Positions 32,976 to 33,363 of a stretch of 64,000 bases of DNA are shown here, piece after piece; position 1 is the stretch's first letter, and each line of letters begins with the position of its first letter. A program made the translations under genes and the position numbers. Origin of the DNA: Trichodelitschia bisporula (lineage: Eukaryota); NCBI GenBank assembly GCA_010356995.1, contig ML996690.1, positions 1 through 64,000 on the forward strand. The letters run 5' to 3'. The notes under the pieces were generated by a model that saw only the letters and a list, made by a program, of their open reading frames with translations, made no database searches and had not been told where the DNA came from.

Positions 32976-32983
32976 ATATATAG
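32976..32983 (+). promoter_or_regulatory. TATA-like box
   Basis: CATATATAG in a GC-rich context, followed by a long C/T/A-rich leader. Confidence 0.45.
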
Positions 32984-33285
32984 ATGACGCCCGCCCACTC
33001 TGCCTAGCCGCCCGTTTCATCTACAGCATCCCCGATCGATTCTTGTCTTTGATATCGCCCGAGCTTCACCCAGCTACAAATACCTGCCTCTCGTCCTCGT
33101 CTTGCTCATCGATCATCACATCGCCTCCTCCAATCCTCAAGCTCAAAGCTCAAACTTCCACTCCAGTCTTCAGACTCCAAGCTCCATCCATCTCCAGCTT
33201 CTCCTCCCAGCTCAGCCTCACCTCCAGAGCTTCCACAAGCTCAATTCAACCAACCTACCTTACCACCGCCCAACCCATCCTCACA

Positions 33286-33363
33286 ATGCCCGCCATGGTC
33301 AGCCTTCCGCCTTGCCCCGGCCCGCCGCCCAACCGTCCCCTCCCACCCGTCCCCAAACAGTAA
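33286..33363 (+). CDS. Candidate 25-aa proline-rich microprotein MPAMVSLPPCPGPPPNRPLPPVPKQ
   Basis: Strong fungal start context CACAATG, upstream TATA and UTR-like leader, C-ending codons, RPLPPxP motif. Confidence 0.5.
   Translation: MPAMVSLPPCPGPPPNRPLPPVPKQ

Follow-up and report, generated by a model that had tools for sequence, protein, structure and literature searches.

The window analysed here, a stretch of 64,000 nucleotides (nt) comprising positions 1 to 64,000 of contig ML996690.1 of Trichodelitschia bisporula (assembly GCA_010356995.1), contains a short open reading frame (sORF) that encodes a proline-rich peptide of 25 residues, MPAMVSLPPCPGPPPNRPLPPVPKQ. There is little doubt that this is a real micropeptide gene, translated and maintained by selection. 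The peptide is under strong purifying selection and its start and stop codons are conserved, while the rest of the locus is not conserved at the distance that separates the window from its relatives. An original prediction, made from the letters of the window, had placed the reading frame on the plus strand from an ATG at 33286 to a TAA ending at 33363, and had proposed that it encodes a stand-alone microprotein. The frame and its translation were found exactly as described, and a stand-alone, conserved microprotein is supported by both RNA cover and codon-level conservation.

Metagenome contigs were scanned with the pattern PCPGPPPN. The pattern matched 330 stretches, and five loci belonging to two related taxa were confirmed. 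All five have an ATG, the same 25 codons, MPVMVSLPPCPGPPPNRPLPPVPKQ, and a TAA, in register with the window. Upon comparing the window with one of these loci (L001), 13 synonymous and one non-synonymous codon changes were found. The comparison of the window with a locus of the other taxon (L003) gave 14 and one, and that of L001 with L003 gave five and none. The differences at the first, second and third codon positions number 0, 1 and 13 for the window and L001, 0, 1 and 15 for the window and L003, and 0, 0 and 5 for L001 and L003. The non-synonymous divergence dN is 0.018 and the synonymous divergence dS is at least 1.5 (dN/dS about 0.01; binomial P 3.5e-7). Codon-level conservation in relatives, on which the original prediction had staked itself, is thus observed: the ATG and the stop are kept and the change is almost only synonymous. 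The two other frames of the sORF and its antisense strand have diverged and have acquired stops in the relatives.

The conservation is confined to the sORF. In a blastn comparison of positions 30000-37000 with the loci, the sole match was 33280/33286-33366. A profile of the relatives' whole unit, from -250 to +1500, was run with nhmmer against the full 64-kilobase (kb) window, and its sole match was 33281-33366 (E 3.3e-10). Neither program detected similarity between the window and the metagenome relatives in the leader or in the 3' region. The L003 unit has nine plus-strand open reading frames (ORFs) of at least 12 residues that begin with ATG; the sORF alone is intact in L001, and the other eight are all disrupted. 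The build of the gene is common to all three taxa for which DNA is available. The relatives have a TATA box, TATAAACT, located 192 and 178 nt upstream of the ATG, so that the box lies 178-309 nt upstream in the three taxa, there is no ATG after it, and an A is found at position -3.

The peptide belongs to a family. A 40-residue reference ending in the peptide returned one candidate, a 50-residue 'uncharacterized protein' of Morchella sextelata, which ends in SLPPCPGPPPNRPLPPTPSK and has 16 consecutive residues identical to the window peptide. When 1.84 billion representative proteins were searched with a profile, 38 matched at E<=1e-3, three of these being query rows. The sequence PPCPGPPP is present exactly in 34 of the 39 proteins collected. 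All but one of these 34 end 9-13 residues past this core, the exception being a 325-residue model of Sodiomyces alkalinus that reads on. A methionine precedes the core in every case, at a distance of 4-10 residues in 33 proteins and 32 residues in the Morchella protein, and the 15 residues before this methionine are unrelated between family sequences. The peptide is accordingly 24-28 residues long in the family and 50 in Morchella. Five of the 39 proteins lack the core. Four of them (P0005, P0006, P0011 and P0016) align solely with the profile's upstream, non-conserved part; the fifth, a repeat protein, is unrelated. The four appear to be leaders of relatives with the sORF in another frame, and the frame of the leader would therefore not be preserved.

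The family is described by the signature M-P-x(2-8)-[LFIY]-PPCPGPPP-[NSTK]-[RK]-PLPP-[LVIT]-P-[KSG]-x(0-4)-stop. Over the 23 distinct strings from the core to the end, no variation is seen in PPCPGPPP, in the P and L of PLPP or in the last P. Directly ahead of the core stands L, F, I or Y. The core is followed by N, S, T or K and then by R (21 variants), K (1) or G (1). The residue between the last prolines is L, V, I or T, and the one following them is K (18), S (4) or G (1). By hand count, [RK]xxPxxP is kept in 21 of the 23 variants.

Names were looked up for 20 matches, most matches being from contigs that bear no species name. The holders identified by name comprise Morchella sextelata from the Pezizomycetes and three Sordariomycetes, Seiridium cupressi, Sodiomyces alkalinus and Grosmannia clavigera; the window itself is from the Dothideomycetes. 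Its exon of the squalene synthase gene ERG9 matches the squalene synthase of Trichodelitschia bisporula with 100% identity over 96% of its length, the second-best match being at 76%. The family thus appears to span the Pezizomycotina, and its presence in these three classes suggests that the gene predates their split. Three NCBI models contain the micropeptide: P0012 of Seiridium cupressi (125 residues), P0022 of Grosmannia clavigera (101 residues) and P0035 of Sodiomyces alkalinus (325 residues). It is C-terminal in the Seiridium and Grosmannia models, where it follows residues unrelated to the other members, and is near the N-terminus in Sodiomyces. All three look like mis-modelled versions of the sORF gene.

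This bears on the expectation that gene finders would drop the sORF or absorb it into a longer frame. The expectation held, except that the stop-to-stop frame able to absorb the sORF (32692-33363) is 223 residues long and not 221. Used as a query, this frame found three calls, which come from contigs of JGI, ENA and Logan. These calls close with 24-26 residues reading MPAMVEFPPCPGPPPNRPLPPLPK or MMPAMVTLPPCPGPPPNRPLPPVPKQ, and the 110-130 residues upstream of that are unrelated to the window or to one another. Elsewhere, then, the peptide terminates longer calls with an unrelated upstream part. An exact look-up of ten ORFs of the transcript in a collection of 15 billion proteins found none of them present.

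A Pfam search at E<=10 returned no family for the peptide or for the family members P0001 and P0003, and neither a PDB sequence search nor the ESM Atlas returned anything for the peptide. Literature searches for PPCPGPPP and PPNRPLPP, for RPLPPLP in connection with fungi, and on fungal micropeptides and sORFs, found no such family in sources other than subscription journals and supplements. The family is without counterpart among the families searched (Pfam, Rfam, PDB and the literature). Its kind, a short linear motif as a gene of its own, is known from animal and plant micropeptides.

The locus is covered by RNA. The data consist of two runs, X1 and X2, of the same sample and study, whose sole label was 'RNA?', and the layout of their contigs was examined over 26000-42500 in 30 bins. 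At nine places in neighbouring genes the contigs of X1 and X2 skip segments of 42-58 nt bounded by GT..AG or CT..AC. The genes concerned are the Tom37-like gene, a gene at 28.0-29.4 kb, the squalene synthase gene ERG9, an eIF4E-like gene and a minus-strand transcript at 37.8-38.0 kb. Lacking introns, the contigs were therefore assembled from spliced RNA. The lack of a transcript beginning near 33.0 kb was one of the findings that would have counted against the original prediction; RNA contigs were found to run from about 32950 or 33108 to 34453 or 34466. A contig of 1359 nt from X2 spans 33108-34466 with no mismatches and no joint, and the adapter-flanked contig ends of X1 are at 32950 and 34453. 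Word depth over the bins of the locus is the highest of the 30, reaching 10,505 and 1,785; depths of 2-21 were seen in the desert on either side, and of about 300-900 across ERG9 and the eIF4E-like gene. The sORF RNA is probably abundant, contig depth being a poor measure of expression that cannot rank genes. The low cover in the rest of the desert was not counted as evidence. Assignment of the RNA to the plus strand is indirect; it relies on the ORF being under selection, on the TATA box and the G-poor leader, and on the A-rich 3' element.

The features of the locus are collected in the table below.

Features of the micropeptide locus in the 64-kb window
Feature	Positions	Strand	Remarks
sORF, 25 codons and stop, MPAMVSLPPCPGPPPNRPLPPVPKQ	33286..33363	+	ATG at 33286, TAA at 33361-33363
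TATA box, TATATAGA	32977..32984	+	309 nt 5' of the ATG; putative promoter element
G-poor, ATG-free leader, presumed 5' untranslated region	32987..33285	+	G about 11%
PPCPGPPP block with single Cys, codons 8-15	33307..33330	+	invariant in the family
Class I SH3-ligand core RPLPPVP, codons 17-23	33334..33354	+	+xxPxxP; read directly from the sequence
Presumed long 3' untranslated region (3' UTR), about 1.1 kb	33364..34466	+	on the same RNA contig as the sORF; contains no conserved ORF
A-rich element (..AGTAAAAGATTGTAAAAGGACGAAAGAG..), probable 3'-end or poly(A) region	34394..34495	+	RNA contigs end inside; putative role

The elements preceding the sORF are largely as they had been described. The TATA sequence is present, one base away from the position 32976 given for it. 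The leader is rich in C, T and A: over the 286 bases of 33000-33285 the composition is 42.7% C, 24.5% T, 22% A and 10.8% G, and no ATG occurs within 32987-33285. The start context, proposed to be CACAATG, is ctcacaATGc with an A at -3. The sORF was said to lie at the centre of a gene desert of about 10 kb. This holds for Pfam-recognisable ORFs, none of ten long ORFs tested between about 28.9 and 38.9 kb having a Pfam family, and does not hold for transcription, since the region is covered by RNA-derived contigs. Pfam families are present in the flanking Tom37-like and ERG9 ORFs. The largest other ORFs on the sORF RNA are 63 residues (plus strand) and 67 residues (minus strand) long. No paralogue of the sORF was found in the window by blastn, the sole match being a copy of the 3'-end element, and no tRNA was found in the 64 kb. 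An Rfam search of 27000-40000 gave nothing at gathering score, and three rows at chance level were obtained for 32800-34600 at E<=10.

The sequence of the A-rich element where the contigs end is AGTAAAAGATTGTAAAAGGACG. It is part of an element of about 100-130 nt that occurs twice in the window, AATGGA.GCATAGGCTTGAC..ATTGTAAAA.GACGAAAGAG..GCTCGAGA..AAATAC..GTGCCAAGTAT, at 34394-34520 on the plus strand and at 45810-45970 on the minus strand. By blastn, the second copy (45838-45930, minus strand) is 73% identical over 104 nt. It lies directly 3' of the stop of a minus-strand, NLR-like ORF of 1629 residues (45960-50849) and is in the sense orientation there too. The two copies could represent a common 3'-end or terminator module, or else a small repeat.

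What the peptide does is suggested by its motif. The segment R17-P-L-P20-P-V-P23 fits the class I SH3-ligand consensus, which is given as +xxPxxP (in a stricter form, +x-Phi-Px-Phi-P) in PMC5823434, in agreement with the statement in the original prediction that RPLPPxP is such a consensus. In class I ligands the flank that gives specificity is N-terminal to the core (PMC5823434). The invariant PPCPGPPP block is N-terminal to the core and thus on the side of the class I specificity flank.

In the proposed mechanism, a stand-alone, TATA-driven gene on the plus strand would have the 25-residue proline-rich peptide as its only conserved product. The sORF would be at the first AUG of the RNA and so would be translated by scanning ribosomes. 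Because more than half of its residues are prolines, the free peptide would be an extended polyproline-II helix or rod without a fold of its own. It would dock in trans onto a proline-recognition domain, the best fit being a class I SH3 domain bound through R17-P-L-P20-P-V-P23, and the invariant N-terminal flank PPCPGPPP would contact the specificity surface of the SH3 domain or a second site. With a seemingly abundant RNA and no content beyond the motif, the peptide might serve as a competitor, a buffer or a tiny adaptor or bridge for the natural ligands of one SH3 protein. A role in trans, in which the peptide would bind some proline-recognition module as its ligand, is probable. Whether it is specifically a class I SH3 ligand, as the motif would predict, is an evenly balanced question. 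To judge from the motif, it is plausible that the peptide competes for the SH3 domains of polarity, endocytosis or MAPK scaffolds, as had been proposed.

In animals and plants there is a class of sORF-encoded micropeptides and microProteins with little content beyond an interaction motif, whose members function as competitors or adaptors. The present gene resembles this class in having its own transcript, a product of fewer than 30 residues, purifying selection and a history of being overlooked by annotation. It differs in the extent of its conservation, which, over three classes of Pezizomycotina, is deep for such a short ORF. We know of no homologous member of the class.

A similar docking motif is present in Pbs2, a yeast MAPK kinase of 668 residues. 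The Sho1 SH3-binding motif of Pbs2 is KPLPPLP, at residues 93-99 in the peptide IVNKPLPPLPVAGSS (PMC12505296 and PMC4904012). Both motifs are of class I, and the family variants with NRPLPPLP differ from VNKPLPPLP of Pbs2 by a single K to R change (same sources). In the window, RPLPPVP of NRPLPPVP is identical to the Pbs2 motif at five of seven positions, the other two changes being conservative, and the relatives with RPLPPLP are identical at six of seven; a similarity of seven residues does not imply homology. According to PMC12505296, PMC5823434 and PMC4904012, residues N-terminal to the core modulate binding in Pbs2 as well, and the PPCPGPPP flank has no counterpart in the Pbs2 peptide quoted there. 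In Pbs2 the motif lies in the N-terminal region of a MAPK kinase, whereas here it forms part of a stand-alone ORF of 25 residues. Sho1 would be the closest candidate partner by motif, with proline-hungry domains, for instance those of type I myosin or Lsb3/4, as alternatives (PMC5823434). A rough SH3 signature pattern had no match in the window or in the metagenome loci. A more far-reaching proposal is that the peptide is a free-standing docking motif of the Pbs2 type, universal and abundant in the Pezizomycotina, which occupies the SH3 domain of the membrane sensor Sho1 or of another class I SH3 protein, is tethered through its cysteine by acylation or a disulfide, and serves the whole lineage as an insulator or switch for SH3-dependent MAPK and polarity signalling. 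This is speculative and rather improbable.

Several observations weigh against the reading of the gene as a plus-strand transcript encoding an SH3 ligand. Two of the 23 variants break [RK]xxPxxP, namely KGPLPPLP (three sequences) and RPLAPLP (one). The SH3 core accounts for seven of about 17 invariant or near-invariant positions, and PPCPGPPP with its cysteine, which is as invariant as the core, needs another explanation. Sequences of the PPLP type are also bound by other proline-recognition modules. The RNA evidence comes from two runs of a single sample in one study, the contigs carry no strand from which the strand of the RNA could be read, and the end of an X1 contig at 32950 is upstream of the TATA box. 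Finally, the two close metagenome taxa share blocks of 92-97% identity in the 3' region, which equals or exceeds the 93.6% of the ORF itself. These blocks are at 601-750, 976-1275 and 1426-1575 of L001 and within 2122-4915 of L003, and past about 1.6-1.9 kb the identity is down to 40-70%. A short-range constraint may act on the 3' region itself, and the high identity there hints at an added role at the RNA level.

Judged from the window alone, the sORF could have arisen by chance within a C-rich leader or non-coding RNA, with the motif coming free from CCN-rich sequence. Owing to its C-rich, G-poor make-up, the stretch 33053-33661 is open in all three plus-strand frames. The six-frame translation of the window, 127,996 residues in all, contains the strict class I motif 29 times. 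In 5000 first-order Markov simulations of 33000-33660, the motif was present in some frame in 29%, and an ATG ORF of at least 15 residues bearing it was present in 8.2%. There are 319 ATG ORFs of 20-40 residues in the window, and the sORF is the one that bears the motif. On this evidence the sORF is within chance, and its reality rests on the relatives. The dN/dS of about 0.01, the retained start and stop, the sORF being the sole alignable stretch, and the 34 proteins that carry the peptide behind unrelated residues reduce the probability of a chance ORF to practically nil, and we consider it already refuted. Selection on the peptide would also arise if the sORF acted in cis: its polyproline sequence would stall or arrest the ribosome, for instance to sense eIF5A or polyamine status, its translation would control its own RNA, and the 3' region would be the functional part. 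Runs of PPP and PGP are classic slow-translation motifs, and selection on a nascent peptide also yields synonymous-only change; the 3' region of about 1.1 kb, with the near-identical blocks seen in the close relatives, would fit as well. The fungal arginine attenuator peptide, encoded by a conserved-peptide upstream ORF (uORF) of 24-25 residues, is similar in length, in its place at the first AUG of the RNA and in the conservation of its amino acids. However, uORFs precede a conserved main ORF, and the sORF RNA has no conserved ORF downstream that could be regulated: the longest, of 63 residues, is absent from the protein collection, and the eight ORFs of the L003 unit other than the sORF are disrupted in L001. 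No similarity of the window's 3' region to that of the metagenome relatives was detected, nor any Rfam match, and the non-proline positions (C, G, N/S, R and L) are invariant too. Regulation in cis is therefore decidedly improbable.

The peptide could also be a trans-acting ligand or effector of a different type, recognized by WW, GYF, profilin or similar modules, or centred on its cysteine as an S-acylation anchor, a redox or metal site or a disulfide dimer. This is unlikely, in spite of PPCPGPPP being invariant in all 23 variants when the SH3 core has lost its basic residue in one and its first proline in another, and of PPLP-type motifs being ligands common to several module families. [RK]PLPP-Phi-P is nearly as invariant as the cysteine block and matches the class I consensus exactly, and the choice of L, V, I or T between the last two prolines suits the hydrophobic slot of an SH3 domain better than it suits a strict PPLP reader. 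Export of the peptide, as a pheromone-like signal or a proline-rich antimicrobial, is very improbable. Lipopeptide pheromone precursor genes of Sordariomycetes have an ORF of 21-26 residues, a long 3' UTR and abundant mRNA, and the present gene recalls them in that its first ORF is tiny and has about 1 kb of untranslated RNA behind it, and in its abundant-looking transcript. The sequences are unrelated, however, and the sORF has no C-terminal CaaX; indeed none of the 30 ORFs of at least eight residues on either strand of 32800-34650 ends in CaaX. By reading, the peptide has no signal peptide and two basic residues only. Its near-identity over distances between classes is unlike that of mating or arms-race peptides.

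Other identities were considered and rejected. The sORF might have been the first exon of a spliced gene, as GTAAAC overlaps its stop, but the contig of 33108-34466 has no joint and the relatives stop at the same codon. It is not the uORF of a downstream gene, there being no conserved downstream ORF, nor a CaaX pheromone precursor, there being no CaaX ORF in the transcript. Telomerase RNA or another structured RNA was considered as well; no template repeat was seen by eye and no Rfam match was found.

Some further features of the window were noted. Low-depth RNA contigs at 35459-38001 have two CT..AC minus-strand introns, at 37800-37859 and 37943-38001. This unannotated minus-strand transcript runs over proline-rich ORFs (34976-35896, 306 residues) that have no Pfam family. 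In both runs a contig joins 42317 to 28554 with 26 purine-rich letters between them, which is probably an assembly chimera formed through low-complexity repeats of the GAG type. Between 4685 and 15612 an ORF of the prenyltransferase alpha-alpha toroid type (4988-5551, plus strand), a cytochrome P450 (6372-7700, minus strand) and a polyprenyl synthetase (14917-15612, minus strand) lie within 11 kb and may form a terpenoid gene cluster. Two NLR-like genes are present on the minus strand. One, at the edge of the window (3-617), is an NPHP3_N/NACHT fragment. The other (45963-50849), which is the 1629-residue ORF mentioned above, has a PGAP1-like hydrolase, NPHP3_N/NACHT and beta-propeller repeats.

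The family signature allows the gene to be located in Neurospora, Aspergillus or Fusarium. If the present interpretation is true, a gene common to filamentous ascomycetes, including plant pathogens, industrial species and model fungi, is being dropped or mis-modelled by standard annotation. Its product would be among the shortest deeply conserved peptides of eukaryotes and little more than a docking motif. To our knowledge, the Pbs2 orthologue of A. nidulans is without a Sho1-binding motif. ShoA of A. nidulans plays no part in osmosensing (Furukawa 2005, as cited in PMC4904012). A peptide that occupies Sho1 would bear on the different wiring of the Sho1 branch in filamentous ascomycetes and yeast. 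More generally, the gene would pose the question of whether a node that reads SH3 ligands or polyproline is regulated by a free, abundant copy of its ligand.

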